DNA of 64,000 nucleotides from Octopus vulgaris (GCA_951406725.2 OX597821.1:19282001-19346000); one strand, 5' to 3'; shown: positions 3,571-63,231, counted from the stretch's first letter. Notes: a model not told the origin generated them from the letters alone. Translations and numbers: made by a program.

Positions 3571-4083
3571 AATGCTACGACCAGAAAAAGCTGCGCGTCA
3601 AAAAAAAAGTGCTCTGTGTTATGAATTCAAATAACGTTGTTGTTAACTTTGCATTTTATCATTTCGGTAGAGCAGCAAAATGCAAGTCGCCTTCACATAG
3701 TCCGAAGTAGCTCTTCTTTTCCGTATTGCCAACATCCAGTGTTGCTGTGACTAATATATGGTGGATTTCATCATGCGCACCTGATCGAGTGTTATAAATA
3801 GGGGAAGGCTCTTGGTGGTGTTAGCGTGTGATGATGCTTCGCATACTGAAATAGTAGCTATATGATAATTGGACTGAGCGCCAGTTAAATATTTACTATA
3901 TATGTGATTTTCTGGAAAATATTTGTTTAAGAGAGAGAGAGAGAAATTTATTACCTACGTTAGTTTGAACATTAAGGAAATAAGAAGGGGTGAATCAATT
4001 TATTCTCCTAGGTCTATTTTAAGATTTTCCTTATATCACTAGAGGGGTTGTATATTAATTCATCATTAAAGCTACTATTGGCG

Positions 4084-4115
<32 letters not shown>

Positions 4116-4233
4116 ATTATTGAAGTAGATAAATGAATTATCCTATTACGGATAATTCAAATGATAACCGATACTTGGGTAGCAAAAATCACAACAGAAA
4201 ACGCACGGTTGAAGTTACGACCATGGGGCATAA

Positions 4234-4848
4234 AAACCGTGCCTTAACAATAATATTAGCAGCGGTTTTAACAACAGTAGTATTACGGACATTATCAATC
4301 ACAGCATTCCCAGTAACAGGGAATATGCAGGTCATATTGCCTTAAATAGTAATGATAATGGGGTGAATAATATCGAATCCAGCGGTAGTTTTTACAATCA
4401 TCATAGTAATAAGAACGCTGTATTAATATCGGAAACCAATCCCAATAGATTAAGGTTCTTATCTAGCAACTCCAAGATTAGAAACGCCATTTACCAGTGC
4501 AGAGTTTATACTGAATCCGATGTCTTCACTTATATCGGAGCTTCATCATCGAAATTGGCCATTAGAATATCGAATCATTTTTCCACGTTCCGTGATAAGG
4601 ATAAGCAACACGCTACGGGGCTAAGCAAATTAGTCTGGCGTTTGAAGAACGCGAATTCAACTTTTAGACTGGAATGGTCAATTTTATCGGTGTCTTTACC
4701 GTTTGATAAGGGCAAAAAATTCTGTGCTCTTTGTAACTCAGAACTTTTTCATATTTTGTTCGTCCGAGGGCAGCTTGTTAACTCGATTGTGCAGAATTCT
4801 TTCAGATGCCCCCACTGGAAACGGCATACCTTTCTCTCATACCAATGA
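4234..4848 (+). CDS. GIY-YIG endonuclease of a Penelope-like element, with no RT upstream
   Basis: NAIYQC...TYIGASS...IRISNH...ATGLSKLVW...LEWSIL...CALCNSE...LVN...FRCPH is the Penelope/Poseidon-type endonuclease pattern. Frame is open from 4234 through an Asn/Ser-rich region. Confidence 0.85.
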   Translation, partial: KPCLNNNISSGFNNSSITDIINHSIPSNREYAGHIALNSNDNGVNNIESSGSFYNHHSNKNAVLISETNPNRLRFLSSNSKIRNAIYQCRVYTESDVFTYIGASSSKLAIRISNHFSTFRDKDKQHATGLSKLVWRLKNANSTFRLEWSILSVSLPFDKGKKFCALCNSELFHILFVRGQLVNSIVQNSFRCPHWKRHTFLSYQ

Positions 4849-5425
4849 AGTCTAATATAGATAGCCCCTGGATTTCCTAAAAAAATGGGAAAAAAAATTT
4901 GAATAAAATTTGAAAGGGGATATCCCTTCCCTGTTAGTATAAGAACTACTTGTCAAGAACTGCTGCCATCCCTGACAGCAACACTGTATCCTGCCATGGC
5001 CATTGTGGAAACCCTCTCTCTATCAAGTGGTCACATACGAACACACAGACACAGTTTTTTCAGTTTCTTGACCATTAATACCTGCTATATATCTCTCTCT
5101 CTTTCTGCCTTCGAAACACACTGTCACACATACATAGACGCACACACACATACATTAAAGCAATTTCTCACACTCAAACACTCTAACACGCATTCTTAAA
5201 ATAATTCAAATATAAACACCAGTCATACAGAATACATTCACACTCTTTGATTTTCCTGTACCCCCCTTCTGCCAACCGGATTCTGACCTTGAACTATCTC
5301 AACGGACAATCTCTTCTGCTTTCACCCAGCCTGGCGTCAACGCATATAGATAGACAGTTTGTGTCATTTATTTCATGGGCTCCTTGTGAGCGTTTGTGAA
5401 AAGCTTGTTGTGCATTTTGTTGGAG

Positions 5426-5511
5426 ATTTTCCTGAAGAGAAAGCTGCAAAATGGACTCCTTATTCAATCCGAATTAGGGACTTTGCAGCCTTCGAAACAT
5501 ATGTAGAAAAT
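5426..5511 (+). ncRNA. Type I hammerhead ribozyme (Penelope pLTR type)
   Basis: Stem I ATTTTC/GAAAAT; core CTGAAGA (5432-5438); stem II GCTGCAAA/TTTGCAGC; GAAA (5494-5497); palindromic mini stem III ACATATGT; predicted cleavage after GTA at 5505. Confidence 0.85.
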
Positions 5512-5562
5512 AATATAAAGGAATTTTGTTAAATCTTCGTTCAGCTCCATTTCTTCCTACAC

Positions 5563-5613
<51 letters not shown>

Positions 5614-5672
5614 GCGTGTGTGTATATCATAGCGATGAATTTACGTCTGTCAACGTATGCATATTTATGCAT

Positions 5673-5675
5673 ATC

Positions 5676-5768
<93 letters not shown>

Positions 5769-5769
5769 C

Positions 5770-5836
<67 letters not shown>
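5673..5836. repeat. (TATC)n microsatellite
   Basis: Seen directly. Confidence 0.95.
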
Positions 5837-5837
<1 letters not shown>

Positions 5838-6186
5838 ATTATTTATATAAATAAGGATAAGATCGTTATTTAAATATCGATCTAACCAAGTGACCACCAT
5901 GGGAATAAAAACCTTCAGAGTTAATAATTGTTATTAAACATTTTTGCTAGTTTATTTTGTCTTTTTGTCTTCTCTCCTGGTGCTGTATGAATATTTATTG
6001 TAGTTTTAGAGTCAAATTTTGTCTACTATTTGCATCTGGTGGTATTTTTTAGATAGCCTTAATTATAATTTTAATAATATCTATCTATATCTATATAGAT
6101 AGATAGTTTAATTATATATAACTGCACAGTCACACACGCGTGCGCAAACACACACACACACACACACATACACGCACACACACACG

Positions 6187-6223
<37 letters not shown>

Positions 6224-7084
6224 GTTCATTTAAAATGTGGGAAGACAATGAGAATGAGAGAGAGAGAGAGAGAGAAAGAATAGGGGAGGAAGAAAGAAGG
6301 AGAGTTAGGAAAGAGGTTTTAAGCACACAGATAGATTCGTGGGTATGTATCTATTTTAGCAGTATGCGATAAATGTATCTGGTGATGTTATGTTTGTGTT
6401 TTGAGGCGTATATTTGTTATATATGAATTGTGCATGACCTCTGTGTTAAGACAATGTCATGAGTATTGTCAACACTGGAACGGAATGAAGGATCAAATCT
6501 TGATCCAACTCTTGTTTACTATGATTATTGGTAAATCAGAGATTTTTGGCTCCAGCGTTGACATCTGGTTGGCAATACGGCGGATTTATCAAAATAGGAA
6601 CAAACAAATGTGATTAAATAGAAATAGTTAGAATATCAATGGGAATATGAGAAGGAGAGAGGAACTGGAAGTGGAAGGAAGAAGGAGTGGAAGAGACGGA
6701 GGAGAGAGAAATAGAAAGAAGATAGAAAAGAGGAGAGACTAATGAAATATAACACTGTCATTAAATATATGAAAACTCTGGCAGTATCGCAACGCCAACA
6801 ACACGAATAAATTCCCAACCCCAGCTTCATCAGCTCGTGCGACAACGACGTCATCTTTAATAACAGCAATGTAGGAAAGACAATTAAACAGATTGTTGCC
6901 AAAACAATAAGAAATACAAAGTGCTTAAGATAGTCTTCATGTTGGGGAATATTTAATGTTTGATAAATGAGGTGACATCATATATGTATATATAAATAAG
7001 CAATATAATATAATATGCATACATATGTACATGCATGCATACATAGATACACACACACATGTATAAATTATATATATATGAATT

Positions 7085-7124
<40 letters not shown>

Positions 7125-7126
<2 letters not shown>

Positions 7127-7543
7127 CGCAGGAGTGGCTATGTGGTAAGTAGCTTGCTAACCAACCACATGGTTCCGGGTTCAGTCCTACTGCGTGGCAT
7201 CTTGGGCAAGTGTCTTCTGCTAAAGCCCCGGGCCGACCAATGCCTTGTGAGTGGATTTGGTAGACGGAAACTGAAAGAAGCCTGTCGTATATATGTATAT
7301 ATATATATGTATGTATGTGTGTGTATGTGTTTGTGTGTGTGTTTGTCCCCCTAGCATTGCTTGACAACCGATGCTGGTGTGTTTACGTCCCCGTCACCTA
7401 GCGGTTCGGCAAAAGAGACCGATAGAATAAGTACTGGGCTTACAAAGAATAAGTCCCGGGGTCGATTTGCTCGACTAAAGGCGGTGCTCCAGCATGGCCA
7501 CAGTCAAATGACTGAAACATGTAAAAGAGTAAAGAGTAAAAGT
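7125..7543 (+). mobile_element. tRNA-derived SINE, family 1, full-length and uninterrupted
   Basis: A-box-like TGGCTATGTGGTAA, B-box-like GGTTCAGTCC, internal (TA)/(TG) tract and (AAAGAGT)n tail. Many copies occur in the window. Contains the empty target site AAGTAGCTTGCTAACC. Confidence 0.9.
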
Positions 7544-10391: not shown

Positions 10392-10920
10392 GATATGATG
10401 ATTTAGGATAGAGAAGAGAAAACTGCAGTTGTGGAAATTAGCTACCCAGCTGATGTTAACATAAAGCTGAAGATCATTGGAAAAGAGAATACCGATACTG
10501 AACTATTGAGAAATCTGCAGTTATTCTATCCAGGCTACAATTATTGGAGCCCTGCCTAAATACAAATCTTAAGAAATTAGGCTTCTCAAAACCAGATAGG
10601 AGAATACTAATTCAAAGACTACAGATCCAATCCGTCACTGGAACTGTAATGACCTTAAAACTTACCAGAGATTTATCATTTAAATATATATGAGCAAGTC
10701 TATATATGCATAAGACTACATACATAATGCAAAACGTGCATATCTGCACATATACATACATACATACATACATACATACATACATACATACATACATACA
10801 TACATACATACATACATACATAGAAATAAAAATATCCGGCTGTTGATGCTGAAATTCTAATGAAGGAGCTTTGAATCTAGGTTAGAAACGGCTTTTTTTC
10901 TATTGGCAAGAAATCTTGGA
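10391..10920 (+). mobile_element. 3' fragment of a non-LTR element with a restriction-like endonuclease
   Basis: DMMI*DREEK..VVEISYPADVNIKLK..KE...LLRNLQLFYP...IIGAL, a PD-(D/E)xK-type pattern. 3' UTR is interrupted by (CATA)n. Confidence 0.65.
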
Positions 10921-12250
10921 AACAAACATTGCAGATCAAGCTTTCCCCATTCACTATACGAGCCGTGCGCTTTCGCGCCGCACGCATAAGTTCTTCATGC
11001 TGGATACGTGCTCTCTCAAAAGTGTCGATCCCCTCCTTAACCTGCTTCCTCCATCTGTGGCGATGACAGGCATTGTTCTCCCAGTCAGTGTCCTGCATAT
11101 CACAGGCCTTTAATGAGGACTTGACACAGTCCTTAAATCGCAGCCTTGGTTCCTGCTGGAGTCTCCTTCCATTCACAAGTTCTCCATAGAGCATCTGCTT
11201 AGGAATCCTTCTATCCTTCATTCTAATAAGGTGTCCAGTCCTATGCAACCCGTTCTTGCGCACCATCGCCTCAATACCCAAGATATCAGCTGTCTTCAGG
11301 ATCTGTGTGTCTGGAATTTTTGAGGTCCAGCCAACATTGAGAATGTGTTTGAGACATCTCTGATGAAAACGTTCAAGGACCCTTACCTGACATTTGTACA
11401 GAGTCCACATGTCTCACATGAGTAGAGAAGCGATGTCAGTACACAAGCACGGTACACAGCAACTTTTGTTCTCCTTGCGATGCCATGTTGGGACCACGCA
11501 CGAGACTGAAGAGACCGGAAGGAATTAGTTGCTCTCTGCAACCTGAAAGATATTTCCTCATCCAGGGAGCAAGAACGACTGAGTGTGCTGCCCAGGTAGA
11601 CAAACGTATCTACTACCTTCAGAATTATTCCTTCAACCAAGATAGCTGGTTCTATATATGGATTTCCTGGTGCAGGCTGGAACATTACAACAGTGTTGTC
11701 CAGGCTAATGCTCAATCCAAATGCCCTGCAAGAAGCAGAAATGCAATTCATGAGTATTTGTATGTCATCCACTGTATGAGTGACTAAGTCACAGTCATCT
11801 GCATAAAGGAGGACACGAATAATAGACTGAGAAACCTTTGAATTGGCAGCAAATCGGCGAAGATTAAAGAGGCCGCCAGATTTTCGATATCTGACATATA
11901 TTCCCAGAGAGCTATCCTTAGCAAAAGCATGAGTAAAAGCAGCAGCAAAGTACAAAGAAAAGTGAGTTGGGGCAAGGATGTCACCCTGCTTGACACCATT
12001 CTCTACAGGAATGGGTCCCGCCATGGCACCACCAACATTGACCCAAGCCTCCATCTCATCATCAAATGATTTAATTATAGATACAAAGTGATCAGGACAT
12101 CCAAGTTTGCCGAGTATTTTCCATAGAAAGGCCCTATTTACAGTATCAAAGGCCTTAGTTAAATCAATGAATACCTGGACAAGATCCATATTCTGCTCAT
12201 AGCACTTCTCCTACATCTGTCCTGCTGTGAAAATCATATCCATTGTCCCT
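10921..12250 (-). pseudogene. RTE reverse transcriptase and C-terminal domain, frameshifted
   Basis: ORFs 11383..12189 (YADD) and 10877..11410. Confidence 0.9.
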
Positions 12251-13130
12251 CAACCAGATCGGACAAGCGAGTCTGAAGCTCTTTCCTAAACGCAACATCA
12301 TATACCTTGTGGACATTTAGGCGAGGAATGCTGACTGGTCCTCTTCTCTCTTTCGCCCTAATCACCATTCGGAACTTTGCTCGCACCAGACTGTGGTCTG
12401 TCCAGCATTCTGATCCATGCAAGGACTTGACCTTACAAATGTCATAAATGTCGCGCTTGCTGATGATGACATAATCCAGCAAGTGCCAAACTTTGGACCT
12501 TGGATGCATCCATGTTGTTGTGTGATCACCTTTGTGCTTGCAATGTAAAGTCCATGTTCTTCGCAAAGCTCCAGTTGCATGAGACCATTGCTATTCATTT
12601 TCCCTACTCCAAAACGTCCTAGAGAGTTCCATGTTTGCAAGTCTGTTCCAACTCTGGCATTAAAATCTCCCAGTAGAATGACTTTATCAGAATTGGGGAT
12701 TTTTCTAAGTATGGCTCTCAGCTGGGTATAAAAGATTGTTTTATCTTCATCACAGCTAGGCAAAGTAGGTGCATAGGCACTTATTAGAGTAGCAAACCGC
12801 TTACCTTTCAAGTGCAACCGTAGGGTCATTATACGTTCATTAATAGGAACAGGGAGCTCTTCCGACTTCTTAAGGATATCAGATCGGACTGCAAAACCAA
12901 CACCAGCCTCTCTGCGCTCCTCCTTCTGCCTTCCTTTCCAAAAAAAGGTGATTCTATCTCCTACTTCCTCAAGCTGACCATCACCTTCTATACGAGTCTC
13001 TGAGAGTGCAGCTATAGCAATTCTATAACGGTTCAGCTCACGAGCAACAAGTGCAGTGCGTCTTTCAGGCCTGCAGTCACTCTTGTTGTCCAACAGGGTG
13101 CGCACATTCCAACATGAAATGTTTAAGTTC
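12234..13130 (-). pseudogene. RTE APE endonuclease domain, frameshifted
   Basis: ORFs 12362..13105 and 12234..12566. Confidence 0.9.
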
Positions 13131-14523
13131 CGTCCAGATTTTATAGATAAAAGACTCTTTGTTTTTCGAGCGCAGGGTGGACATCCGCCAGTCGCGCTAA
13201 ACTGACCAGATATGGAGAGACAGGAAATTATGGTTCACCTTTTCTAGAACCTCCCCGGTCTCCAGGTGAGCAGTGCCCTCTCCAAATGGAGCTGCTCAGA
13301 CACCTATGCAGCAACCGAATCCTACCGCTGTCTTGGGAGACATATCTAGCATGGGCCGCCTACGTGCAGGTCGCTGACTACATGCTTCCAACCCGTCAGG
13401 TCTGCATGCTTCACCACATTCCCATCGCCGCAGGACTTCCGAATAAAAGAAATAAAAATATATACTAAGAATGAAGAAAATATATACTAAAAATACGATA
13501 AATATATATAGAATTAAAAAAATGCACATATCGAGCAGATGTCGGCAATGCCTGTGCAGAGTTTTAGGTTCAATAAGGCTTGCACAACACCTCATAGACC
13601 CTCTCCACTTTATTGTCATTATCCAGAGACAAACCGGAGCAAGATGTGTGGTGCCAATATGAGTCGCAGGCTCAGGGATGAGGGAGCGCCGTGATCTATA
13701 GCACAAACCAAAGATCCCCCAAATGTCCAATGCCATTCCCTGCATATCTGGTTTTATATCAGAGTGACCTTCTCCTAGAGACATGCTTTAACAAAAGCTG
13801 AGGGGCGCCTCACTCCCAGTGGTCTTTCAGCACGCCGGACACCACCCCGGAATTTCTGCGTACCCGTACTAACATTTATTGGATGGCCGTTGACTCTCAA
13901 GAGGTCCTCCGCCCTTTGACGGGCTTTGTTTTTCATCCCGCAGCGTGTCCAATAAACACCCTCCTCACCAAGCAAGCTTGGTGGGGTTGCCGGTTTAGTC
14001 GCCGACGACCCGACCATGCAACAGGTTGTACTGGATTACATGTTACCAGTAGCACTCGAAAGTGACCTGACACAACATACATACATACATACTTATACAT
14101 ACATACGTCAATTTAGCGACGTATATATTTCTGCTTCAGGTTGTAAAATTGCAAATTAACCAGCCATATTATTTATAATCATTACTTTTACCATTTATGT
14201 AATCAGCGTAGAGTTTCAACGGAAATCTCAAAAACCAGCAAGTGCGGTAGGAGCCCTCGAAGAGCATTAAGATGCGTCAAGCATCAAAATACAAAATTTC
14301 CGATGATCTTGTTGTATTTGCCACCGTAAGGAGCTTGTTTGCTTTGTCAGTCATTAAAATAGTGTTTCTGTGGCTATTGAGTTTTGATACTTATATATAT
14401 CACCATGATATCACCGTGACCGACCAGGCTATCAGATGCTGCTAAACATCGCTGGTCACAATGCACTTCGCATTGTTTTAGCCTTCAAATGACGCTACCC
14501 CGCTGGCTAAGCGGGCAACCCAA

Positions 14524-15304: not shown

Positions 15305-15696
15305 ATCTGGCAGAAACGTTATCACGCCGGTCGAAATGCTTAGCGGTATTTCGTCTGCCGTCATGTTCTGAGTTCAAATTCCCTCGAGGTCGACTTTGCC
15401 TCTCATCCTTCCGGGGTCGATTAAATAAGTACCAGTTACGCACTGGAGTCGATGTAATCGACTTAATCCGTTTGTCTGTCCTTGTTTGTCCTCTCTATGT
15501 ATATATTGTGGGTAGTAAAGAAATAGGTATTCCGTTTGTCTTTACGTTCTGGCTTCAAATTCCACCGAGGTCGACTTTGTCTTTCATCCTTTCGGTGTTG
15601 ATAAATTAAGTACTAGTTGCGTACTGGAGTCGATCTAATCGATTGGTCCCCTCTTCCAAAATTTGGGGCTTTGTACCTAGAATAGAAAAGATATTA
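15305..15696 (+). mobile_element. SINE family 2, dimer-like composite with two different 3' tails
   Basis: Body GGTATTTCGTCTG...GAGTTCAAATTCC...GTCGACTTTG occurs twice. First unit ends ...TTTGTCTGTCCTTGTTTGTCC...AAAGAAATA (15525); second ends ...GTACCTAGAATAGAAAAGA. Confidence 0.85.
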
Positions 15697-17452: not shown

Positions 17453-17839
17453 TCTTTACTCTTTACTCTTTTACTTGTTTCAGTCATTTGACTGCGGCCA
17501 TGCTGGAGCACCACCTTTAGTCGAGCAAATCGACCCCGGAACTTATTTTTTTGTAAGCCCAGTACTTATTATATCGGTCTCTTTTGCCGAACCGCTAGGT
17601 GACGGGGACGTAAACACACCAGCATCGGTTGTCAAGCAATGCTAGGGGGTCAAACACAGAGACACAAACACACACACACATATATATATACATATATACG
17701 ACAGGCTTCTTTCAGTTTCCGTCTACCAAATCCACTCACAAGGCATTGGTCGGCCCGGGGCTATAGCAGAAGACACTTGCCCAAGATGCTACGCAGTGGG
17801 ACTGAATCCGGAATCATGTGGTTGGTTAGCAAGCTACTT
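17451..17839 (-). mobile_element. SINE family 1, 3' portion (host of the nested LINE array)
   Basis: Reverse complement matches 7147-7543. Interrupted at TSD GGTTAGCAAGCTACTT (17824-17839). Confidence 0.92.
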
Positions 17840-20079
17840 TATTTCAAAACATTTGCCATAAAGGCAGTACACAGATTAAGTTAGCTTTGCGGGCTGGACG
17901 AGGACATTAATGAGGTGAATGATAATGAAAGAAAGATGATAAGGATGGGAGAAGACAGAAAGCGCCCGCCGACTTTTGCTTCTCTAAAACATTGTTCTTT
18001 TTAAAAAGATAAACACAAAACGAGGTATTAAACCTCTTACAATTTTTCCAATTTTGGGCTTAGCAGTCCATTATTAATACAAAACGAGGTATTAATCCTC
18101 TTACAATTTTTCAATTTTTGGACTTAAGTCCATTACTAATAATACATATCGTCCTCGAAATAGCTTGTGCCCGCGCCCTCCACCATCAACCACGCCTCCC
18201 TCAGAACGTAGTCAAGTTCCGAGTTCGCGTCGCCCGGGACCAAGTTATAATCTTCATTGAGCTCCTTTAGCCCTGGCGTCACGTCGAACGCCACGGCCTC
18301 CACAGCTACCTGCGGAGGCCATTCGGGGTTCTGTGTGAAGGCTAAAGGTGCTCCCTTGTAGTGCTCTTCCATCACTTTTTCAATTTCTCCTCCTCTATAG
18401 AAGAGGACCAATACATTCAGTTCTTTCGTTGGCGGCACAGTTTCCGCCAACGGTATTCCTTCTCTTGTCGGTGGCACAACCCCAACCGACGTAGTTCCGC
18501 GACATTCCGGTGCTACACTGACAGCCGGTAATGTCCCGTTTTTCTTCCTCTTTTTCTTTTTTTTCCCTTTTCAACTGAGGGAGGGTGCGTCTCCTCCGTG
18601 GCTGGAAGATTCGCCTTCCTCTCCTCATCCCTATTATCCTTTGGTGGGTACCCATTGTTGCTCACCTTCCTCTTTCGGCCTCTGTTTGAGGAGTCCTCTG
18701 CTTTCTCGGCCGTTATCGTTCCCTCCTCTAGAGGGGTTTTACTTAACTGTTCCGGGATCCTATTTTGTTCCCGAGGACAGTTCTTCTTTATGTGGCCGGA
18801 CTCCAAGCACCGATGACACTTAGGGGGGCGACCCTCAAGCATCACCGGGTACCTGCACCCGGCCATTTTAAAAAATCTGGAAAAACCAGATTGGCTGATT
18901 GGGTCCACAGGGTCAAAATTGCTTTCGACCCAACCGAAGCAGCCGCAGGAAGAACTTTTACATTGAGGAGCTTAGTTTCGCTGTCAAACAGGCGCCGGCG
19001 GATAGTCTCCTCTATCCACTCGGGTTCTATGTCGGGTGGCAGTCCGCAGATCCAAGCTTTCATCAATTTCTTTTTTTTGTACGTGGACAGGAATAAGATT
19101 TCCTTGCCCTCCAAGGGTTCGCTAGCAAATTTGCAAGCCTCTTCAGGGGTGTCAAATAGCAACCACACCGTTGCATATTTGACACCCCTGGAAATGAATT
19201 TAATTGTTGGCAAATACTCCTCCAACTCCTCCTCAATTGCCGTCTTTTCGAATAGGGCGATGGTGTCAAGTGCCTTGGAGTAGGTTCTCAACACCACCGT
19301 CCTATCTTCACGGTCTTTTAACCACTTTTTGGGTGGTATGATTTCCCACTCTAAAATTTTGTTATTTTTCATTGCCATGTTTTTTTAAAAATATATTCAA
19401 ATTAAACTCAAAAGCAGGAAGAAAAAAGTTCAAAAGTCTAAATAAATTTGATAGATTTTTGAAAAAACAAAAAGGAGAAAGCACAACAGAAGGGAAGAAA
19501 TTAACGGAAAGTCGCAATAAAGAAAAAAACAAAAGGGGGGGGGGGTGAAATGAAGTTCAAAAGAAAGTTAATAAACAGAAAAAACACAGCAAAAATATTC
19601 TGGCCTTGCGGTACTCCCGGCCTGGGTTGAACCTGGAACGCCGCAACTGCAACACAACCTCCACAAAAATGGGTCCGAAAGGTAATCCAATAGTGGCTTA
19701 TTTTTATACTTTTCTTGCGAAGTACTCTGACAAGGGAATAAATTCAGCAAACTCAAACGCAGCACTGGCTACCGCCAACGGTAATTTTAACAGTAACTGT
19801 ATTGAATTCTGAGTATACGCCCCTCCACAGTTTTTTCTTTTTTTTTTTTCAATGAACACAAAAACGGCATCCGCCTAGCGCAGGCGAAATTGTCTCAGAG
19901 TTGGACACAACCTACTGAAATAATAATTGGCACGCAATAAATTATGCCCAACTCACAATAAACAAAATCACTTACCTCGACAACTTTCCGTTTTTGGTCT
20001 TTTTTCTTTAGTTGGACAGAGCTTGTTACTCACGTCCACTCTAGCTCAAAAGGAAGCAACCGACTAACTGCGCATGTGC
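17840..20079 (-). mobile_element. ORF1-only non-autonomous retroelement (HAL1-like), 2.24 kb
   Basis: Bounded by identical 16-bp TSDs. Encodes only a frameshifted ORF1 with a CX2CX4HX4C knuckle and no APE or RT. 3' end resembles that of the adjacent LINE. Confidence 0.85.
18136..19378 (-). pseudogene. Gag-like ORF1 with zinc knuckle, frameshifted
   Basis: ORFs 18842..19378, 18513..18908 (EGRPPKCHRCLESGHIKKNCP), 18395..18655 and 18136..18477. Aligns ungapped to the LINE ORF1 at 30/99 identical residues (manual count). Confidence 0.85.
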
Positions 20080-20323
20080 GGTTAGCAAGCTACTTTATTT
20101 CATATAATTTGCCATTTAGGCATTTACAAAGAGGGGACAAACAAGGACAGACAAATATAAAGGGTGAAGTAGCTTAACACAGTTACAATTTTCGAATGAA
20201 ATTACGGATAAGATTATAAACAATGAATTTTACGAAGGCAATGTTTAAAAATATTAATGATCATGTCGAAGGACGGACACCCAGCCATCCGGGTAGAACC
20301 TTTACTTTCTGATCCGGTCACAC

Positions 20324-23300
20324 TTACCTGGTGCCAAACATACCCATCTTGTATGCCACAGGCTTCCATCTTTTCACAAACATATCTCGTGACAGACACC
20401 TCTTCTCCAGCCTGATTTTGCTACTGAGGTGGTAACTAAAAAAGTTAATCAACCCCTGGCCGGAGACAAAGGTGCCTCTCACTATACCTTTCGTACGCGT
20501 CTTCCATACTGTTTCTTTCAGTATGGCTACTACACAGAAAAAACAAGCCTTTCTTTCCCTGTTAAGGAAAGGGGGCGGCACAATCTCGATGATAGACTCA
20601 GCTGATAGCTGTACTCTTCCCATCACTGACAACAGTTGTTCAACAAAAGCTATCAGTCCCGATAACTCCGGACACTCCACGAATGCGTGCAAGACGGTCT
20701 CCCTATCCTGCTCACATCGCGGGTATGTCGGCGAGACGGCACTACCGTGCCTTGACAGCTTGTCGCGAACAGGTAAAGCCGCACGGAAACACTGCCAGGT
20801 TAGGGATTTCTGGTAATTATCCAGATACCCCGGCCCAAACGTCCTCCGGAACAGGTTGATCAACTGATTTTCATCGTAGCCCAGGGTCTCCCCCAAGGCG
20901 TCTTCGGACTTAATCTCCACTAACCCGCTATAGAAATCCGTGGTGGAACTCCTGTTGCCGGCGTTGCCCACCCGAGATAGTAGCTGGAGCACCTGACGGC
21001 ACTCCAAATGCCATTCACTCAGTTTAGGTCTCCGCTTGATCCATGCACCGATGTCCGTTAGGGATGTTAACTGGGGAAGGTAGAACCGGACGTGCGGCGA
21101 CCACACCTGCTCTCCATCCAGGTATAGCCAGAGGTGCCTCAACCTTAACGCGAGTTTTCGCATCCTCAGCCAAGGCATCCCTAGCCCACCCTTTAGCGGT
21201 TTCTGGCAGCAGACAGAGCGCTTTACAAGTGGCTTTCCTCCTTTCCACAAAAATCGGAAAAGGATTCTCTCCAACTTGTTCAGCCACAAATCGGGGCAAG
21301 GCACCACGGTCAGACGGTAGGTGATTACTGATGCTATAAACATCTGCACCACCTCCGCCTTCCCTAGCAGGGATAACGCCCGCCCAGACCAGGTCTGGGT
21401 TAGAGCGGTCACCTTGTCGGCCACCTCACTCCAATTTTTCTCAATCTGGAGGTCTGGCCCGAACCAGACTCCGAGCAGCTTAACAGGACCTTCCGTCCAA
21501 CGCCCTACGACGTTATTGGACGGCATCGGCTTGCCCCTCCAGGTGCCGAGTTGCAAACCGACCGACTTGTCCTTGTTAATCTTTGCTCCTGCCACCGCCT
21601 CGTAGCTTTTGATGGCCTCTTCCACCACCGGAAGCTGGCCTTCGTCTGCCACGATGATGGAGGTGTCATCCGCATACGCCGTAGCTCCTCTTCCACACCA
21701 TAGATCATGCGGCGCGCCCCCTAGTGCCTCCAACTTCCGCAGCAAAGGCTCAAGAGCCAATACGTATAGGAGCGAGGACAGGGGCGACACCCTTGACGAA
21801 CTGAACGCCCGATCCTGAACGGCTTCGAAAAGGAACCGTTCACCTTGACTACAGACTCGATGTCGCTATACAAAGCAGCGATCCAACCTCGAAAGGTCGG
21901 GCCTAGGCCAGCCTCTCCGAGGACCGCCGCCAGGTACCGATGGTCGACCCTATCAAATGCTTTGGACTGGTCTAAATGTACCAGTGCTCCCCCTGCGCCA
22001 GAAAGCTTCCCCACCCTCTCTAAGGAGTAGCGTATAAGGTGGAGATTGTCGTGGATCGTTCTGCCGGGGATAGCGCACGTTTGCGCTTCCCCGACAAGTT
22101 TGTCCACGACCCGCGCCAACTTTTTTGCTAGCACCTTGGCCAGAATCTTTAACTCTGTGTTTAACAGAGTTATGGGCCTGAAGTTCCCTATCTCGTCCCC
22201 CTTGTTCGGGTCCTTCCTGATCAACGTCACCGCCCCCCGGCTCGCAGACTTGGGAATTCTCCCATTCTGCTGCCAGTTGGCGTAGACGCTAGCCAGCAGG
22301 TGCCCGAACAAGTCTGGCATACTTCTATAAAATTCATAGGGCAGACCATCGAGACCCGGCGACTTCTCCCCGGGGCACTTGCCCAACACCTCGATTACTT
22401 CCTCGGCTGTGAATGGCCCTTCACAGCACTCAGCCTCTCGTGTCGAGAGGCGCGGGCCACCAGACAGGAAGTCCCTAAGGGCCTCACCATGATCCAGCGT
22501 CCCGCACCTCCCGAACAACTCGGCGAAGTGCTTGTGGAGTGCCTCACACATCTCGTCCCGCTTCTTGATCGTGCATCCGTTTTCATCAACAAGAGACCCA
22601 ATTGTGGTATCGTTTCCACGCTGTGTTTCTATCGTACGGGCCCATCCGGCAACATTAATTCCCTCACGGCCCAATGCTCGTACTTTAACCCGGACTCTAC
22701 ATCCCTCATGTTTGGTTTTGAGGTGACGGTCTAATGCCGTTCTCGCCGCTAAAATGTGAGATGCAGAGCCCAACCTCAACGCCTCCTCTAAGTTCTTAAC
22801 TAGTTGCCCTTCTATTCTAGCCCTATCTAGTCTTAGTTGTTTACTAAATCTAATTGACTCGAATTGAATGGCTCTTTTGAGGGTGAACCACCACCGGTTA
22901 TTAACCACGGCTCCGGTTAACGCCCTCTGCACTAACACCTTAATCCGGCTACGGTATGCCTCGCGTGTCAAAATAGACTTGTTCAGCTTCCAGTATCCGG
23001 TTCCTATCTTAAATGTGCTATCTATGCCCAGTCTACACGTGACCATTCTATGGTCAGTATAGGGCACCTGGACGAGCTGTGGACAACTAAAACTAGACTT
23101 ATCTCTAGTTCTTATCACTATCCTGTCTAGATAAGACTTGAACCTTCCGTCGCCACTCATCCAGGTTCACTCTGGGACGTTCGGATGGTCAAGTCTCTAA
23201 CGATCTGCTAGCTGAAACCGCTTAAGCAGATCCACGAGACGTGAGTTTACTTTCCTATAGATCGAGCCAACGCTATCGATGTGTACGTCAACGATAGCAT

Positions 23301-23726
23301 TAAAGTCCCCTAATATCACTAAAGTCTTCGACGTCACGAGAAAGCCCTCTAGGCGCCGATAAAAATCAGTTTGGAAACCTCTAGCACAAGGTGCATAGAG
23401 TCCGATCAACCTGAAGGCCTTACTGCTGTATGTCACATCAAGGACGACCAGCCCACCTTCTGGGTCTACATAGACTGTACTTGTCTGTAGAGCCAAGTCT
23501 TTACGGATCATACCACTACGCCCCCTCGCCCTCCGGTCTGGCCAGGAGACATGATTTTCTCGTAGCCATTCAGGAGAGGCGAGAAGGTTTGTAGGCTGTC
23601 CAGCTTGGTCTCTGTAGCAACCATCACATGTATATCATGTGATCTGAGGTCGTCGAGGAAACAAGCCTGCTTCCACTTCGAACTCAGACCACGCACATTT
23701 AAACAACCAAGGTTAAGCGAAGCCAT
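20324..23726 (-). pseudogene. Tx1-like ORF2 (APE + RT + CCHC)
   Basis: LNVRGL...ETKL, LYAP, GDFN, YLDRI, TDHRMV, GYWKLN, KSPGLDG, FRPITLLN, LDQSKAFDRV, VRQG, AYADD, PRCEQDRETVLHAFVEC. In-frame stops near 23197 and 23168 plus frameshifts. Confidence 0.93.
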
Positions 23727-23742
23727 TACAAAAGTAAAAGTT

Positions 23743-25161
23743 CTACTTACATTTCGTTGGAGAGGTGGGGCCCGACCTCACCACACGTTTGTGGGCCCCT
23801 CCTTTCTCCTCTTTCTTCAGATAGTCCGGCAAGTTCGCGATATGCCGGATGGCGTTTGGGTGTCTGTCTTTTAATTGTTTGAACGTTGTTTCCGCAATCC
23901 ACGTGTGTCTATTTCGATCTTTATATTTGTTGTACAGTCTTGCTGACTGATGCTGAACCACAATATCGTTTATGTATTTGTCTTGTGTGTCGAATTCAAT
24001 TAATATGAGTTCATTTTCTTTTTTGTCTTCTTTTTCTGGGCCAGTTGAGCGGGATTTTTTTTTCCGTGTCTGTGGTGTGTCTTTGTTTTTATTATTTTTT
24101 GTAGGGGATGTGGACAGGGATGCTGCACGAATTCTTTTACGAACTGGTGTAAATCCCCCTCTGATACCTCCATGGTATCGTCTGGGGTAGCAATAGTTTG
24201 TTCGGTAGGCGCCGCAGTTTTTAGGGGGTGGGAGGTTTTAATAGTGTAGGGGTTTGTGAGTGCGAGGGCTGGGTTTTTTCTTCAGTCTGTTTTGGGGTTG
24301 GCACCGTAACAGCAGGAGTGGGATTTTTGTTTTTGTAGGGGTAGGTGTGTTTGCAAGGGTAGGGACTTTTTTATTATCTGAGGGGCCTGGTGTCTGCGGT
24401 TTCTTTTGCTTGTCTGGACAGTCTACACGAATGTGGCCCTTTTTGCCGCAGGCGTAACAGGTGGGTTTTCGGCCTTCGACCTTGAGGGCTACGTTCTCGC
24501 CCACGAGCACCCTCTCAGGAAGGAGCTGCAGATCCTCCGCTGTTCCTTGAATTAATATATTAATGTTACGCCCGAGCCAAAATAGAGGGGTAGAGCATGT
24601 TACTTGTAGTATTTTTATTTTGTCCGCCCTTTTATATAACAGGGCGGCCACTACCTCTACCGGATCTACGTCCGGCGGGGCTTCTACAATTCTGACCCGG
24701 GACGTCCTGCGTCCCCTATAGCTTGGGAAAAGTACCACCTCCTTGGTTTTTAGGGGGTTCACAGAATGCCCGCGGGCCATTTCTTCCCCCGAGAAGCGGA
24801 CATCTACAGTGCCATATGCCCGTCCCCTGGCGACGTACACGATGTCCTTCCAAATCGGGGACAGGCATTTCTCGATGGTGCTTTTTTCAAAGTGTTTGAA
24901 CCTTCTGCTTTGTGGACAGAAAGTTTTAAACATTACGGTCCGCTTCTCGGTCTCCACGGTACTGGCGGAGGGTGATATTTTAACATCACCACCCTCCTCT
25001 TGCATTCTTTTAAATAGCTCGACGAGCTGATTGACATCGATGTCAATGTTCTCGGTAGCCACTGCGGCTACCGCAGAAAATTTTTTAACATTGCTCTCCT
25101 CAAGAGCACTACTTTCGTGAATAATTTCAACAGACATTATTCTGTTGAAATTAGACAACAC
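23743..25161 (-). pseudogene. Tx1-like ORF1 with zinc knuckle
   Basis: ORF 24238..25161 contains EGRKPTCYACGKKGHIRVDCP. A basic, Pro-rich tail continues after a frameshift to 23743. Confidence 0.88.
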
Positions 25162-25526
25162 AAAAATTACGAATATTGGTTTCCCACAAAACTGGGAAAC
25201 CTATAGAAAGTTTTTCTTCCAAAGTAGTTCAAAAAAGCAGTTCAAAAATTCCAATTCCCACCCCCATTCGGGGGAGGGGCACGAAAATAGTCTGGCAGGA
25301 CTATATATAGTCACGTAAATAAAAAGCCACAATGGCTAACAGTTCAACGGTAAGAAATTATCCAATTATTCCCCGGTAAAACCGGAGAACAAGACAGTTC
25401 AGCAACGTTTGAAGACAAATTTTCAGTAGTAGAAATTCAACAATTAACAACACAGCAAAATTCTTACCGGGAAGAAAACGCGTCCAAACCGTAGTACGGT
25501 GAGTAAAGTCACTCTTCAGTCAGTGA

Positions 25527-25564
25527 GGTTAGCAAGCTACTTACCACACAGCTACTCCTGCACC
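25527..25564 (-). mobile_element. SINE family 1, 5' head (A-box side) of the split copy
   Basis: Reverse complement GGTGCAGGAGTAGCTGTGTGGTAAGTAGCTTGCTAACC matches 7125-7162. Confidence 0.92.
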
Positions 25565-25566
25565 TA

Positions 25567-30860: not shown

Positions 30861-31486
30861 TGATGCATGCATGTTTATAAAATGGGAATAGTATAAACAT
30901 ATCACACACACACACATGTATTAGATGCATAGATATATATTTGTAATAACCTGTTGGCAGTTGCAAACGTTTTCTAATGTTAAACCAACAAAGCTGCATG
31001 ATAAATGCTTTTTCTACCTTCTAGCTAATATAATTAGCAAGTAAACATCTATCTGGATTCATTAAATACTTATGGAATCTTCTGTACTTTCAAGTTTAAG
31101 CAATTTCCTTTGAACTAATTACACTTTTATAAACGAATTTCAGAAATTGGGAATGGAATTGTAAATTTTAATTGAATTTCCAAATTGATTAGGTCAAATT
31201 CCGTTGAACATCATCCATCATAACTACAAACTTTCGGCTTATGCACACACAGACATACGCACTTATGTATATATGTATATATTTATGTACGTGTGTGTAT
31301 ATATGTATATATGCGTATATGTGTTTTGAATAGGCGCAGGTGTGGCTGTGTCGTAAGAAGCTTGCTTACCAACCATATGATTCAGGGTTCAGCCGGAAAC
31401 GTGTCTTCTATTATAGTCTCGGAATGACTAAAGACTTGTGAGTGGATTTGGTATATGGAAACTGAAAGAAGCCGGTCGTATATATA

Positions 31487-31680
31487 GGGAGAGTTTACGA
31501 AAAAAGCAAAAGACGAAGACAGGTGGTGTACAAAACAAACAGATGTATTAGTATAACGCTCAGGAATAGAAAAAGTCTTTTACGTTTCGAGCCAACACTC
31601 TTCTACAGAAAGGGACACAGAAAAAACAAGGAGAGAAAAACGATGTGTGTAGTGGCTAACGGTCTATCATGGTGACTCAT
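31487..31680 (-). repeat. pLTR-type repeat with a variant hammerhead, placed at the (TA)n of a partial SINE
   Basis: Minus strand CTTT-CTGTAGAA-GAGT-GTTG-GCTC-GAAA-CG-TA-AAAG (31577-31612). Confidence 0.5.
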
Positions 31681-33865: not shown

Positions 33866-34092
33866 TGTTTCTTTACTACCTACAAGAGGCTAAACACAGA
33901 GAGGACAAACAAGGACAGACAAACGGATTAAGTCGATTATATCGACCTCAGTGCGTAACTGGTACTTATTTAATCGACCCCGAAAGGATGAAAGGCAAAG
34001 TCGACCTCGGCGGAATTTGAACTCAGAACGTAGCGGCAGACGAAATACTGCTAAGCATTTCGCCCGGCGTGCTAACGTTACTGCCAGCTCGC
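33866..34092 (-). mobile_element. SINE family 2 with a Tx1-like tail and an 11-bp TSD
   Basis: TSD TGTTCAGTACC at 33855-33865 and 34093-34103. Inserted within the MITE-like copy. Confidence 0.9.
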
Positions 34093-39079: not shown

Positions 39080-39167
39080 TAATAATAATAATATAATATA
39101 TATATATATATATATATGCTTGTATATGTATATGTATAAGCATGTATATATATATATATATTCCTCT

Positions 39168-39550
39168 GGACGCAGGAGTGGCTGTATGGTAAGTAGCTTG
39201 TTTACCAACCACATGGGCAAGTGTCTTCTACTATAGCCTCGGGTCAACCAAAGCCTTGTGAGTGGATTTGGTAGACGGAAACTGAAAGAAATCCGTCGTA
39301 TATATGTATACATATATATATGCGTGTGTGTGTTTGTGTGTCTGTGTTTATCCCCCTGGCATTGCTTGACAACCGATACTGGTGTGTTTATGTCCCCCGT
39401 TACTTAGCGGTTCGGCAAAAGAGACCGATAGAATAAGTACTGGGCTTACGAAAGAATAAGTCTCGGGCTCGAGTTGCTCGATTAAAGGTGGTGCTCCGGC
39501 ATGGCCGCAGTCAAATGACTGAAACAAGTAAAAAGAGTAAAGAGTAAAGA

Positions 39551-49211: not shown

Positions 49212-51539
49212 TTATTGCTTATTTAGCTTGGGTTCGAATTTATCAATAAAATTCTTTTCTCTGATTTTCCTCTCGATTTCACTTGGGCTGTGTAATTTGT
49301 AGAATGGAAATATTATATATATTTTCCGACCACATGTTGCTAGGTGGTTACTCAAAGGTATCTGACGGACCTCTGGGTCTCTAATCTGTTGCCGGTGTAC
49401 ACGTGAGCGTTCTAATAGTGCGTTTCCCGTCTGACCTACATATATTTCTTCACAATTTGGGCATTTGATGCAGTAAATTAAATTTCTGCTTTTGCAGTTC
49501 ATATTCGCGTTTGTGAATATTTTCCCGGTTTTTGTGTTTATATATTGACCGGTATGTATGAATTGGCATGTGCCACATCGGCTATCATTGCATTTAGATA
49601 CCGTGAATGTTTGGTCTTTGTTGCTGAGGTCAAATTTTGCCTTTGTTAGTAATGTTTTCAAGTTTTTAGGCTGTCTTTTACTAAGCACCATAGCTCGATC
49701 CTTGATTATGTCTTTTAATTCATTACTTTGGGCAATGATTGGTAGGTTTGCTTTGGCAATGTTGAAGATATTCTGGTGACATGGGTTGTGTGTCACTATG
49801 AATGGTATGACTTGTTCTTGTTTTCCTCTTCCTTGGGTTGTCCTAAGTTGTTGTATAGGTATTTTTATAGCCCGCTGTATGCCATTTTCTATAAGTAGAG
49901 ATGGGTATTTTTGTTTGAGCAAAAATTCTCTTAGTTCTATTAGGCGTTTGTTCCTGATATTTGCATCTTCTACAATAGTACAAATTCTTCTGGCTAGGCA
50001 GTATGGGATGTTACGTTTTGTATGTGGTGGATGGCACGACTTAAAATTTAGGTATTGATGTGTGTCTGTGTGTTTATAGTATATATCTGTGGTGATGGTG
50101 GTGTCTTTTTTAATTACCATTATATCCAGGAATGGTAATTTGGTACTACTCATCTCCTTTGTAAATTTGAGAGATGGGTGTAGGTTGTTCAGGAGGATAT
50201 TGAACTCTTCCAGAGTATTTAGAGATTCTGTCCAGATTATGAAACAGTCGTCTAGGTATCTCTTCCATGCCTTTTCAATATACTTTCTAAATCCAGTGCC
50301 ATAGTTTACCTCCACCTCTTGGTAGAGTTGTTCTTCTAAGTATCCCATTACAGAGTTGGCGTAAACGGGAGCAAACCTCGTTCCCATCGCCGTGCCTCTA
50401 ATTTGGATGTAATTCTTTCCATTGAAGAAGAATGTGTTATTTTCTAGAATAAGTTTGACTGTGTCTAATATAAATGGCACTGTGAATCTGCTGGGAATCA
50501 CTTCTCTATGTTTTTCTAACCAGTATTTAATCGCCTTTATTCCTAAATCGTGTGGAATATTGGTGTAGAGGCTTACCACATCAAAACTTAGTAAAACTGA
50601 ATTTGTTTCTGTTGTTTTGGGAAGATGGGACAGGAAGTCGATGTCATCCCTGATGAAACTTGGTATGTAAGTACATAGTGGTTTCAAAACAATGTCAATA
50701 AAATTGCTTAGACGGTGTGTAGGGCATGCTGGACCAGCTATAATAGGTCTAAGTTTTAGGTCTTTTGGATGTAATAATTTTATGTACTCACTTTCTTGTT
50801 CTTTTACTGCCTGTTGAATGTTTTTTGATTTGTGTATTTTTGGTAAGCCGTAGAAGTTGCTGGGTTTTGGTTCAAAATTGGTGATGTAGTCTTTTTCATT
50901 ATCCGTAAGTGAGTTGTGGTGTGTTGAAATCAGGTTGTTGATCTTTTTCATGATGTGGTGGTCTATATTTGCGGGTATTTCACAATAGAAGGTTGTATCC
51001 TTCAGTTGGTCTTCAACCAAATCCTTATAGTATTCGGTATCCATAATAACAATTGCACCACCTTTATCTGCTTGTTTAATTATTATTGTTTGATCGTTTT
51101 GTATACGTTTACATGCAGACATCTCTGATTTGCTAATGTTTGGCCTAACATTGGTATTGCGTCTAAGGGGAAATTTAGACAGGATATCAATGTATTGGTC
51201 AAGGTAGTTATTTCTTCCTTTTGGTGGGGTGAAATTTGATTTATTCCTTACTAGGGATTCATCAATCTCATTACTTTTGTTAGCGAAGAATTCTACAAGT
51301 CGTAATTTTCGACAGAATTTTTGGATATCCTCCTTTAATTCTTGGTGGTTGGCTGTTGGTGTAGGTGTGAATTTCAGTCCTTTTGACAGAAGTTGGATTT
51401 CATCATTGTCAAGATCTCTTTTTGATAAATTAATTATTTTAGGATCTATACGTTCAGTTGTTTGGGGTATGTTTCCTCTTGGATTTTTTCTTTCTCCGGT
51501 GTTTGTTGTCCTGACGTAAAAAAATGGATTTTTTTCTGG
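49212..51539 (-). CDS. Penelope RT-GIY-YIG polyprotein (636 aa from first Met; frame open upstream to ~51539)
   Basis: IINLS...LLSKGLKFTP, IIKQADKGGAIV, FYGLPKIHK, RPII, SFDVVSLYTNIP, GTAMG, RYLDD, LPFLD, CNDSRCGTC linker, NLIYCIKCPNC...YVGQT. Confidence 0.93.
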   Translation of the reverse strand, partial: PEKNPFFYVRTTNTGERKNPRGNIPQTTERIDPKIINLSKRDLDNDEIQLLSKGLKFTPTPTANHQELKEDIQKFCRKLRLVEFFANKSNEIDESLVRNKSNFTPPKGRNNYLDQYIDILSKFPLRRNTNVRPNISKSEMSACKRIQNDQTIIIKQADKGGAIVIMDTEYYKDLVEDQLKDTTFYCEIPANIDHHIMKKINNLISTHHNSLTDNEKDYITNFEPKPSNFYGLPKIHKSKNIQQAVKEQESEYIKLLHPKDLKLRPIIAGPACPTHRLSNFIDIVLKPLCTYIPSFIRDDIDFLSHLPKTTETNSVLLSFDVVSLYTNIPHDLGIKAIKYWLEKHREVIPSRFTVPFILDTVKLILENNTFFFNGKNYIQIRGTAMGTRFAPVYANSVMGYLEEQLYQEVEVNYGTGFRKYIEKAWKRYLDDCFIIWTESLNTLEEFNILLNNLHPSLKFTKEMSSTKLPFLDIMVIKKDTTITTDIYYKHTDTHQYLNFKSCHPPHTKRNIPYCLARRICTIVEDANIRNKRLIELREFLLKQKYPSLLIENGIQRAIKIPIQQLRTTQGRGKQEQVIPFIVTHNPCHQNIFNIAKANLPIIAQSNELKDIIKDRAMVLSKRQPKNLKTLLTKAKFDLSNKDQTFTVSKCNDSRCGTCQFIHTGQYINTKTGKIFTNANMNCKSRNLIYCIKCPNCEEIYVGQTGNALLERSRVHRQQIRDPEVRQIPLSNHLATCGRKIYIIFPFYKLHSPSEIERKIREKNFIDKFEPKLNKQ

Positions 51540-51725
51540 TTATGATTTATATTCCTGTTGATGTTTGCTTGATGAATTTTGCGTTTTGGTTGTGGTACTT
51601 TACTTGGTTTCGTTATGTTTTCTGTCTTGTTTTTGGTATTATGTATGCTACTTTTCAATTTCTTGTTAGCATTGTTTTTAACCATATATATATATATGCG
51701 TGTATATGTATGTATGTATATATAT

Positions 51726-57507: not shown

Positions 57508-57959
57508 ATATATATATATGTATAATAAAGGGTAAAAATCATTAATGATATAACCAGGTGGTCAGTGCAAAAATAAAAAAAAAAACATCATAGGTAAATT
57601 TATAATTATATACATAATTGTAACAAAGGATTGGCTATACTCCTCACCACGCATTGTAAAAATAGACGCCAGAAGACACTATAACCACCTTAAATTTCCG
57701 AGAATAACACATTAAGTTGTAGGCAACCAACAGAAAGGTAGTGAATCAAACTTATGGCTAACCGTGTACAAGATACTGTTTCAAGCTTAAAGTAAAAATA
57801 TATTGCTTACTGCTATCATCATCAGCAGTATTACCACTGCTGCTGATAGAAGTATGTAATGCTTTTTACTTTAATCTCGAAACTTGGTCATGTGCATGGT
57901 TAACCGTAAGTTTGATTCACTACCTTTCTTTTGCTTGCCTACAACTTAGTGTGTTATTG

Positions 57960-58389
57960 TCGGAGAGGCCTGCATCAACTGCCTGGAGGCACTTGATGCA
58001 GGCCCCTGCGTTGAATGTGAGGCTACGTGGGAAGATGAATGGAGGCATAACGTTGCTACCACTAATGATCACGCCAAGCACCATGATACTGACTGGATGT
58101 TTGATTTTAATTAGTCTCTGTACATGTCCCAAGATTGCACTTTCCTCAGATTGACACCCAAACACTCTGAAATGTTTCTGTTGGAGCTTCCTGCACGAAT
58201 GCCAAGCAGTACAAATGTCGTTTCCTAATTTCTAGCAGAGTGAATTGCAGTATGGTGCAGTCTTCTCACAGACGGTGCCCAATATACCCTGTTATGCTGT
58301 GTAGTCGACAAAAAAATCAAAAACAAACAATTGAATACGCAAAATTAGAAATATAAAGTTGCGACAATTTACGGAGTGCACTCTGTATA
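57960..58389 (-). mobile_element. Tc1/mariner-superfamily (maT/DD37D-like) deletion relic
   Basis: KHPVSIMVLGVII..SNVMPPFIFP...YIKCL-like motif. Terminus reads TA-CAGAGTG. Confidence 0.6.
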
Positions 58390-58694: not shown

Positions 58695-58826
58695 TAATAT
58701 AAACAGTAGTTTGTAATGTTTCACCGAAAAGGTGAATTACAAATGTCACTAAGTGTGACTAGGTTGTTAGGAAAGCACCTACACCGGTACTTCTAATCTT
58801 GATGCGCAAAATCATACACACTACTG

Positions 58827-59870
<1,044 letters not shown>

Positions 59871-62801: not shown

Positions 62802-63231
62802 TGTATGTATGTATGTATGTATGTATGTATGTATGTATGTATGTATATAAAGTTAATCCAAACAAGAAAGCACAAAAAAACACAACAACGCGAGGACGTG
62901 GAACAAATATAGTTTTATTGGACGCTCAGGAAAGAAGGAGTGTTTAACGTTTCGAGCGGAGCTCTTCGTCGGAAACATAGGAGAAGGAATGATCCAGAGA
63001 AGGGAAGACAGAGGAAAAAAATCGCCAACGGTACACACGAGGTCAGTAGTGTGTATGATTTTGCGCATCAAGATTAGAAGTACCGGTGTAGGTGCTTTCC
63101 TAACACCCTAGTCACACTTAGTGACATTTGTAATTCACCTTTTCGGTGAAACATTACAAACTACTGGAGAAGGAAAGATCCAGAGAAAGGAAGACAGGGG
63201 GAAAAATCGCCAACGGTACACACGAGGTCAC

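Follow-up and report, generated by a model that had tools for sequence, protein, structure and literature searches.

Non-autonomous LINEs that retain ORF1 are a known kind of element, and the available text of PMC5786205 gives them from three clades, Jockey, L1 and CR1. In mammals, HAL1 (PMC5753468 and PMC5786205, in the portions available) encodes ORF1p only, lacks ORF2, belongs to the L1 group and is taken to move in trans. HeT-A, with its partners TART and TAHRE, and the Drosophila telomeric families (PMC5786205, PMC13534243, PMC5009743, in their accessible parts) are ORF1-only elements with an ORF1 lineage of their own, arrayed head to tail beside an autonomous partner at a specific site, and the gag of HeT-A has an internal frameshift; about 40% of the Drosophila telomeric families are ORF1-only according to the accessible part of PMC13534243. 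Ag-Sponge of Anopheles is an ORF1-present non-autonomous LINE derived from CR1, whose description in the available text of PMC5786205 does not mention target specificity. Fixed targets are familiar from Tx1 elements: the portion of PMC4494074 at hand describes Tx1 in Tx1D, Keno in U2 genes, and Tx1-Mar in Mariner-N4_AMi together with the passenger SINEU, and the targets it names are DNA transposons, LTR elements, snRNA genes, microsatellites, satellites and 5S rRNA, with no SINE head among them.

The 2240-nt unit described here, from Octopus vulgaris, encodes an ORF1p homolog and no ORF2, and fits the HAL1/HeT-A/Ag-Sponge kind as given in the available text of PMC5786205. It was rejected as a strict HAL1 because its ORF1p, with a predicted RRM fold and a CCHC knuckle, has no Pfam match to the ORF1p of mammalian L1 and because no poly(A) precedes the duplication; it differs further in having a defined target within a SINE, an ORF1 28% identical to that of its likely helper, and a mollusc host. 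It was likewise rejected as a HeT-A: that element is of the Jockey clade, sits at chromosome ends and makes no target duplication, whereas the unit belongs to an L1/Tx1-type pair in a dispersed SINE with 16-bp duplications, and its partner has a reverse transcriptase closest to L1 ORF2p. As in the Tx1 systems, an APE-type LINE has inserted into another repeat at a fixed site, and its target is shared by a passenger, but SINEU is non-coding and the octopus unit codes for ORF1. PMC4494074 calls target preference where more than 20% of flanks are of one type; here there are two insertions at one site, together with junction contigs. L1-Tx1 is listed among coleoid repeats in the accessible part of PMC8967140, and PMC9115989 makes no mention of Tx1. 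A search of titles and the beginnings of abstracts returned no ORF1-only Tx1 element and no SINE-targeting LINE in octopus; the unit family may already be in Repbase.

Two insertions at one position of a SINE

The window analysed is a 64,000-nt stretch (OX597821.1:19282001-19346000) in which microsatellites and SINEs are frequent; the relatives of its proteins, where named, come from Octopus. On the minus strand, which carries all features of the locus, the order is SINE head (25543..25564), 16-bp repeat (25527..25542), LINE (20096..25526), repeat (20080..20095), ORF1-only unit (17840..20079), repeat (17824..17839) and SINE body (17470..17823). The head, now separated from the body by two insertions, aligns to an empty SINE at 7119-7525, and the body is 93% like 7147-7525 of that copy. 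Three identical copies of the 16-mer GGTTAGCAAGCTACTT (plus strand, starting at 17824, 20080 and 25527) frame the LINE and the unit, and a fourth, reversed, is found in the window at 7162, inside the empty SINE. Since the 16-mer is present in an uninterrupted SINE, the repeat is a target-site duplication, and the LINE and the unit occupy the identical position of the SINE head.

The host SINE is presumably tRNA-derived; ARAGORN and Rfam found neither a tRNA in its head nor a ribozyme. SINE copies at 39160-39532 and 31325-31490 have about 30 bases missing just downstream of the target site. The start of the unit (20070-20079) reads (G)CACATG, a hexamer that also occurs in the SINE 3 bases past the duplication (17815-17823), and at 20079 one base is absent from other copies of the unit. 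Elsewhere in the window, pieces of 30–34 nt (15471-15504 and 33894-33923) match the LINE 3′ UTR just upstream of its tail at 91–93%. The minus strand also holds a second, fragmented LINE (10877-13787; APE and RT, approximately 30% like the neighbour's ORF2, no excess RNA structure) and a Penelope-like element (49212-51985) with a 775-codon open frame and RT and GIY-YIG domains. A perfect 264-bp inverted repeat (57783-58046 and 59257-59520, 1210 bp apart) and a 98% inverted pair of 239 bp (58704-58942 and 62928-63166, 3985 bp apart) represent a young DNA transposon or foldback element, with SINE pieces adjoining at 59181-59859.

The LINE is a full-length L1/Tx1-type element of 5431 nt without poly(A), identified by Pfam and PDB matches. 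Its ORF1, with a CCHC knuckle, spans 25137-23743 and its ORF2, with APE, RT and zf-RVT domains, spans 23726-20324. The best PDB match of the reverse transcriptase was L1 ORF2p (E 2e-31, compared with 5e-14 for R2), pointing to the L1 group; the clade is likely to be Tx1, because the element carries a CCHC knuckle, has no poly(A) and inserts at a fixed target (see also the available text of PMC4494074). Frame shifts and two stops interrupt the reading frames of this copy. In the comparison with contigs, five one-base breaks and one two-base break were absent from other copies, and four of the five one-base breaks sit in homopolymer runs, as is typical of decayed copies or of long-read errors. 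Correction of the indels yields a 465-aa ORF1 and a 946-aa stop-free stretch of ORF2, and two stops in the ORF2 frame (residues 177 and 187) remain uncorrected among the 40 of 521 substitutions and 12 of 32 indels listed; an intact helper LINE is plausible. At 24482, just before the linker to the ORF1 knuckle, LINE copies in two of the read assemblies compared below (X1 and X10) have six extra bases, which are missing from the other two (X4 and X7).

The original prediction had outlined a TSD-bounded unit of 2.24 kb with a 5′ UTR of about 700 bp, one frameshifted ORF with a CCHC knuckle, a 3′ UTR and no trace of APE or RT, and most of this held. Between identical 16-mers lie 2240 nt, comprising a U-rich 5′ UTR of 701 nt (19379..20079), unrelated to that of the LINE and with a strong hairpin near 19887-19966; an ORF of about 415 codons from the first long-frame ATG at 19378 to the stop at 18136-18138; and a 3′ UTR of 296 nt (17840..18135) without poly(A), which carries the tail shared with the LINE and contains a 70-nt tandem duplication (18009-18079 and 18073-18141, 87%). 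The knuckle (18774..18821) was recovered by the zf-CCHC profile (E 0.002), while the single frameshift proved to be two −1 breaks, at around 18870 and 18560. Of four ORF2 pieces compared by tblastn with the 3′ UTR of the unit the best scored 20.8 bits, which 3/100 shuffles reached, and an APE start in the correct frame gave E 0.087 at best against the unit; as a positive control, two of the four pieces found the unrelated LINE near 12 kb. Two candidate remnants, KIVRGL as an APE start and an ORF2 C-terminus in the 3′ UTR, were rejected on shuffle controls.

The UTRs had also been described as unrelated except at their termini, which was right for the 3′ end and wrong for the 5′ end, where 5/20 positions match. 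DNA-level likeness between unit and LINE is confined to the 3′ tail, in which 23/30 nucleotides agree with the 3′-terminal 30 nt of the LINE (20096..20125), the sole other such place among the 128,021 positions of the window; the only blastn match was the 3′ 37 nt (E 0.035). Neither the 3′ nor the 5′ ends had a special RNA fold (z −0.5 to 0.3).

The ORF1 protein and its lineage

The first ORF1 piece (18866..19378) encodes, according to a structure model and structure comparison, an RRM-fold domain (approximately residues 14–103) and a second alpha/beta domain. The model, built from a 20-row alignment, had a mean pLDDT of 78.9, and RRM proteins filled the list returned by a structure search, with a top VIA Z of 8.7 (82 residues, rmsd 2.9), close to what the tool rates as common; Foldseek returned nothing at E 0.001 or better. 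The closest relative, P0002 (O. sinensis LOC115225585), was placed in the Atlas near CCHC and RRM clusters, ZCCHC3-type RNA-binding domains included. The protein had been called Gag-like, a description that suits its single CCHC knuckle alone, the folded part being RRM-like. The unit and LINE ORF1 proteins share a gap-free block in which 30/96 residues are identical, rather than the 30/99 first counted, and homology continues through the knuckle to around residue 228 (score 204, against a highest score of 63 in 1000 shuffles). The unit's ORF1 has 10 residues before the core, compared with 49 in that of the LINE.

The C-terminal 96 aa (18136..18426, with the stop) are acidic, with 19 D+E to 6 K+R, and unlike the C-terminus of the LINE ORF1 (score 19, reached by 970/1000 shuffles), as the original prediction of a distinct acidic region had it. 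For the C-terminal 96–144 aa there was no Pfam or NCBIfam match, no homolog among 47 candidates and no usable Atlas match, and comparison with 19 proteins and the LINE C-terminus gave nothing significant (at best 4/200 shuffles, among 20 tests). A single-sequence structure model of the region had a pLDDT of 42.5. The 144 open codons of this stretch would arise with a chance of approximately 0.0005 for that composition.

A search of 1.84 billion representatives with the ORF1 protein gave 19 matches, and only one relative above 40% identity is known: P0002, 72% identical to the unit's ORF1 and starting at the same methionine. Both proteins are without the 40–50 N-terminal residues of most relatives with intact starts. 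No full-length relative of about 415 aa was found in the protein searches, and none of the unit in the viral and metagenome contigs searched. A second O. sinensis gene model, P0001, fuses 46 aa of the unit's ORF1 (85%) to an integrase-like part, probably because nested elements were annotated together as one chimeric gene.

In a tree of 18 of the 20 rows (P0007 and P0019 were dropped as too short), the unit and P0002 grouped together (100/99) and the stem of their clade measured 1.27 changes per site, while the ORF1 of the LINE fell in a 7-row group (86/95) that excludes the pair; deep forks were weak. On this tree the unit's ORF1 lineage is old and separate from its neighbour's, to which the protein is 28% identical. 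Derivation of the unit from the neighbouring LINE by recent internal deletion was rejected on the separate clades, that low identity, and the restriction of the blastn match to the 3′ end. Between the unit and P0002 the folded part is 72% identical, the knuckle 81% and the linker 37%, and three of the four piece-1 positions at which this copy alone has a different amino acid show the residue of P0002 in the letters of the family. Conservation of fold and knuckle with such reversion is the pattern that purifying selection would give.

Family copies and the source of ORF2

The unit was present in 20 of the 24 public read assemblies listed, from nine studies and under three organism labels, and eight held half its words or more; no RNA run was listed among those holding it. 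Four runs (X1, X4 and X10, of DNA type, and X7, whose RNA label is a guess) were compared with 17700-25566 at 85% likeness, and all four covered 30/30 bins. Relative to single-locus depth, taken from diverged LINE pieces, depth was approximately 37–101 for the unit and 45–109 for the LINE, to be read as an order of magnitude of depth and not as copy number. The junction of ORF1 and 3′ UTR occurred in contigs of all four runs: contigs crossed 18126 at depths of 2383 (X1), 2286 (X4) and 314 (X10), and an X7 contig spanned 18018-18298 with three other letters. An X1 contig of depth 2275 has a 1-base variant at 20079 and therefore aligns from the 5′ end of the unit on into target sequence. The unit is thus a multicopy family of roughly 40–100 close copies, a number similar to that of the LINE, as contig depth and junction contigs in four runs show. 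Since both junctions recur in it, it did not arise as a one-off deletion; the single-copy deletion origin that would have told against the original prediction is unlikely, and its claim of an old independent family rather than a recent deletion derivative stands in respect of the neighbouring LINE, with multiple copies and a separate ORF1 clade. That the unit belongs to no family, and is either an isolated copy that has decayed or been misassembled or else a host gene, is very improbable. Both elements are broken here and the homopolymer errors suggest an unpolished assembly, but the contig data contradict such a view: depth in 3/3 DNA-type runs is tens of times that of diverged single pieces, and contigs contain both junctions. 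The 16-bp duplications, being identical, also speak against it.

The unit bears the marks of target-primed insertion, a target duplication and a LINE-like 3′ end. On balance it is probable that this multicopy ORF1-only retrotransposon, which has its last 30 bases and its SINE-head site in common with the neighbouring LINE, likely borrows the APE and RT of that LINE. Use of the neighbour's ORF2 and target is likely, judged from sequence, because the two share the 3′ tail, the junction and the target duplication, and are similar in age and depth. This copy diverges from X7 contigs by approximately 1.0% in the unit and 0.9% in the LINE, and the two are of the same age. Insertion probably proceeds by target-primed reverse transcription in trans. 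The unit would be transcribed and its RNA coated by its own ORF1p, with a predicted RRM fold and a knuckle recognised by profile; the ORF2p of the LINE would then recognise the shared 3′ tail. Judging from the junctions, the endonuclease would nick the bottom strand of the SINE head at TT|A, where reverse transcription would start, and a second nick 16 bp away would give the 16-bp duplication. At this locus the target is restored with every insertion, which accounts for the head-to-tail stacking of unit and LINE; if an adjoining SINE head is required for nicking, the LINE would have inserted second. With an ORF1 lineage that is old and apart from its neighbour's, the partnership would resemble that of HeT-A with TART and not a fresh deletion.

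Young copies could instead have moved or been amplified as one 7.7-kb composite of LINE and unit, the unit riding in cis, either as a DNA-level block duplication or by read-through, in which LINE transcription passes the middle duplication and ends at the tail of the unit, a tail that could act as a LINE 3′ end. We consider this unlikely. It would account for the equal divergence of about 1%, for closest copies at near 1:1 depth (unit and LINE 3683 and 3427 in X4, 356 and 381 in X10), and for a unit 5′ end as deep as the interior (4031 in X4 and 397.5 in X10 at 20079). However, summed depth at the LINE 3′ end is 2–5 times that at the unit 5′ end in 3/3 DNA-type runs (39,176 and 8,087 in X4, 3,047 and 572 in X10, 41,684 and 21,747 in X1), and therefore many LINE-family 3′ ends have no unit behind them. 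The middle 16-mer demands a separate insertion at least once, and the unit retains a 701-nt 5′ UTR and an ORF1 apparently under selection. A joint of 20125 to 25532, moreover, which fuses the 30-nt LINE tail (20096-20125) to the SINE head without the rest, was found in X4 and X10 at about six single-locus depths and under two organism labels, and was absent from the columns of X1 and X7; it is possibly a SINE subfamily with a tiny insertion, and would represent a separate event of the same kind. No joint skipping the LINE alone or the unit alone was among the 15 of 759 joints listed. The contig tables are dominated by SINE contigs and, besides the joints, list 24 of the 4908 loose ends, 12 of the 32 indels and 40 of the 521 substitutions; they are therefore silent on what lies upstream of most units.

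Somewhat less probable again is an origin of the unit family by more recent internal deletion from an unseen autonomous sister, a LINE that has the same ORF1 and 5′ UTR and supplies ORF2, the neighbour sharing the target only. HAL1-type families arise repeatedly in this way, according to the available portions of PMC5753468 and PMC13534243; P0002 reveals a second subfamily that may belong to an autonomous element; and loose ends running from ORF1 into APE could lie beyond the 24 of 4908 listed. Set against this, no protein of 301–2000 aa links the unit's ORF1 to an ORF2, in what is by the tool's own note a weak search, and the 3′ UTR of the unit is without an ORF2 C-terminus. Depth from ORF1 into the 3′ UTR went from 65,575 to 70,058 in X4, from 4,033 to 6,652 in X10 and from 103,162 to 74,879 in X1, which is taken as no fall, in a bin that holds the tandem duplication.

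Frame breaks, RNA hairpins and implications

The two frame breaks are more likely to be one-base losses in homopolymer runs, particular to this copy or assembly, than programmed signals. That one or both are programmed −1 ribosomal frameshifts is a doubtful proposition, albeit one compatible with borrowing of the neighbour's ORF2. Break 1 (18866..18875) lies at an in-frame U_UUU_UUA heptamer, directly followed by a predicted stem-loop of about 35 bp (18793..18865, −46.6 kcal/mol) that encodes the EGRPP linker and the knuckle; a slippery site before the most stable hairpin makes programmed frameshifting possible. In-frame X_XXY_YYZ heptamers occur on the reading path only at the two breaks (four overlapping matches), the folding window after break 1 is the most stable of 381, and the gag of HeT-A needs a frameshift (PMC5009743, in its accessible part). 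Break 2 (18557..18567) lies in a G3A8 run coding for a lysine tract, and at this same tract P0002 also goes out of frame and ends. At break 1, however, P0002 stays in frame, and the spacer there is 3–4 nt, below the usual 5–9, while the strong stem after break 2 begins about 20 nt away. Hairpins tile the whole ORF, 2/10 homopolymer runs precede z < −4, and the one-base losses of similar kind in the adjoining LINE do not recur in its other copies. Among the 12 of 32 indels listed for other copies, none falls at either break. Frame 0 after break 1 meets a stop at 18842, giving 179 aa. With programmed shifting the ORF would give a short protein with the RRM alone, a form that includes the knuckle and, rarely, one that extends through the acidic tail, in keeping with reports on the HeT-A gag, but we doubt this scheme to the same degree.

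The three ORF pieces of the unit, and likewise the two stretches tested from the LINE ORFs, folded much better than synonymous-codon shuffles (z −4.9 to −8.6, 0/25 each), compared with z −0.5 for the window's other LINE and z −2.1 for the Penelope element, which may be older copies. Windows passing z −3 elsewhere numbered 6/68 in the Penelope element and 4/41 in one flank. Long coding hairpins are predicted across 17840-25526, for example at 19147-19326, 18247-18366, 21127-21206 and 21307-21386, although the LINE stretch homologous to the strongest hairpin of the unit has none (z 0.3). Family letters lowered the folding energy at 20/33 sites and raised it at 11 (p 0.035 against a matched null), including a lowering at 7/10 sites within the unit ORF; the 33 sites were those of the 40 listed substitutions with most depth carrying the other letter. 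A joint reading would combine a HeT-A/TART-like partnership away from telomeres, co-amplified at about 1:1 and homing to 16 SINE-head bases so as to split the SINE, with hairpins selected in both RNAs and −1 frameshifting at U_UUU_UUA and its hairpin giving nested ORF1 proteins; taken together we think this improbable.

What is likely to be new here is not the ORF1-only kind, but the group, L1/Tx1-type, and the SINE-head target. The borrowing relationship proposed for the unit would add a target-specific L1/Tx1-type ORF1-only case in a mollusc, and it bears on why a passenger keeps an ORF1 of its own. Helper and passenger are young and similar in abundance, with only a 30-nt tail in common and ORF1 proteins 28% alike. 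A pair so little alike would make the cis preference of ORF1p, the recognition of the tail by ORF2p and the choice of target separable by swaps, and a LINE homing to the head of a SINE is a candidate source of a site-specific endonuclease.
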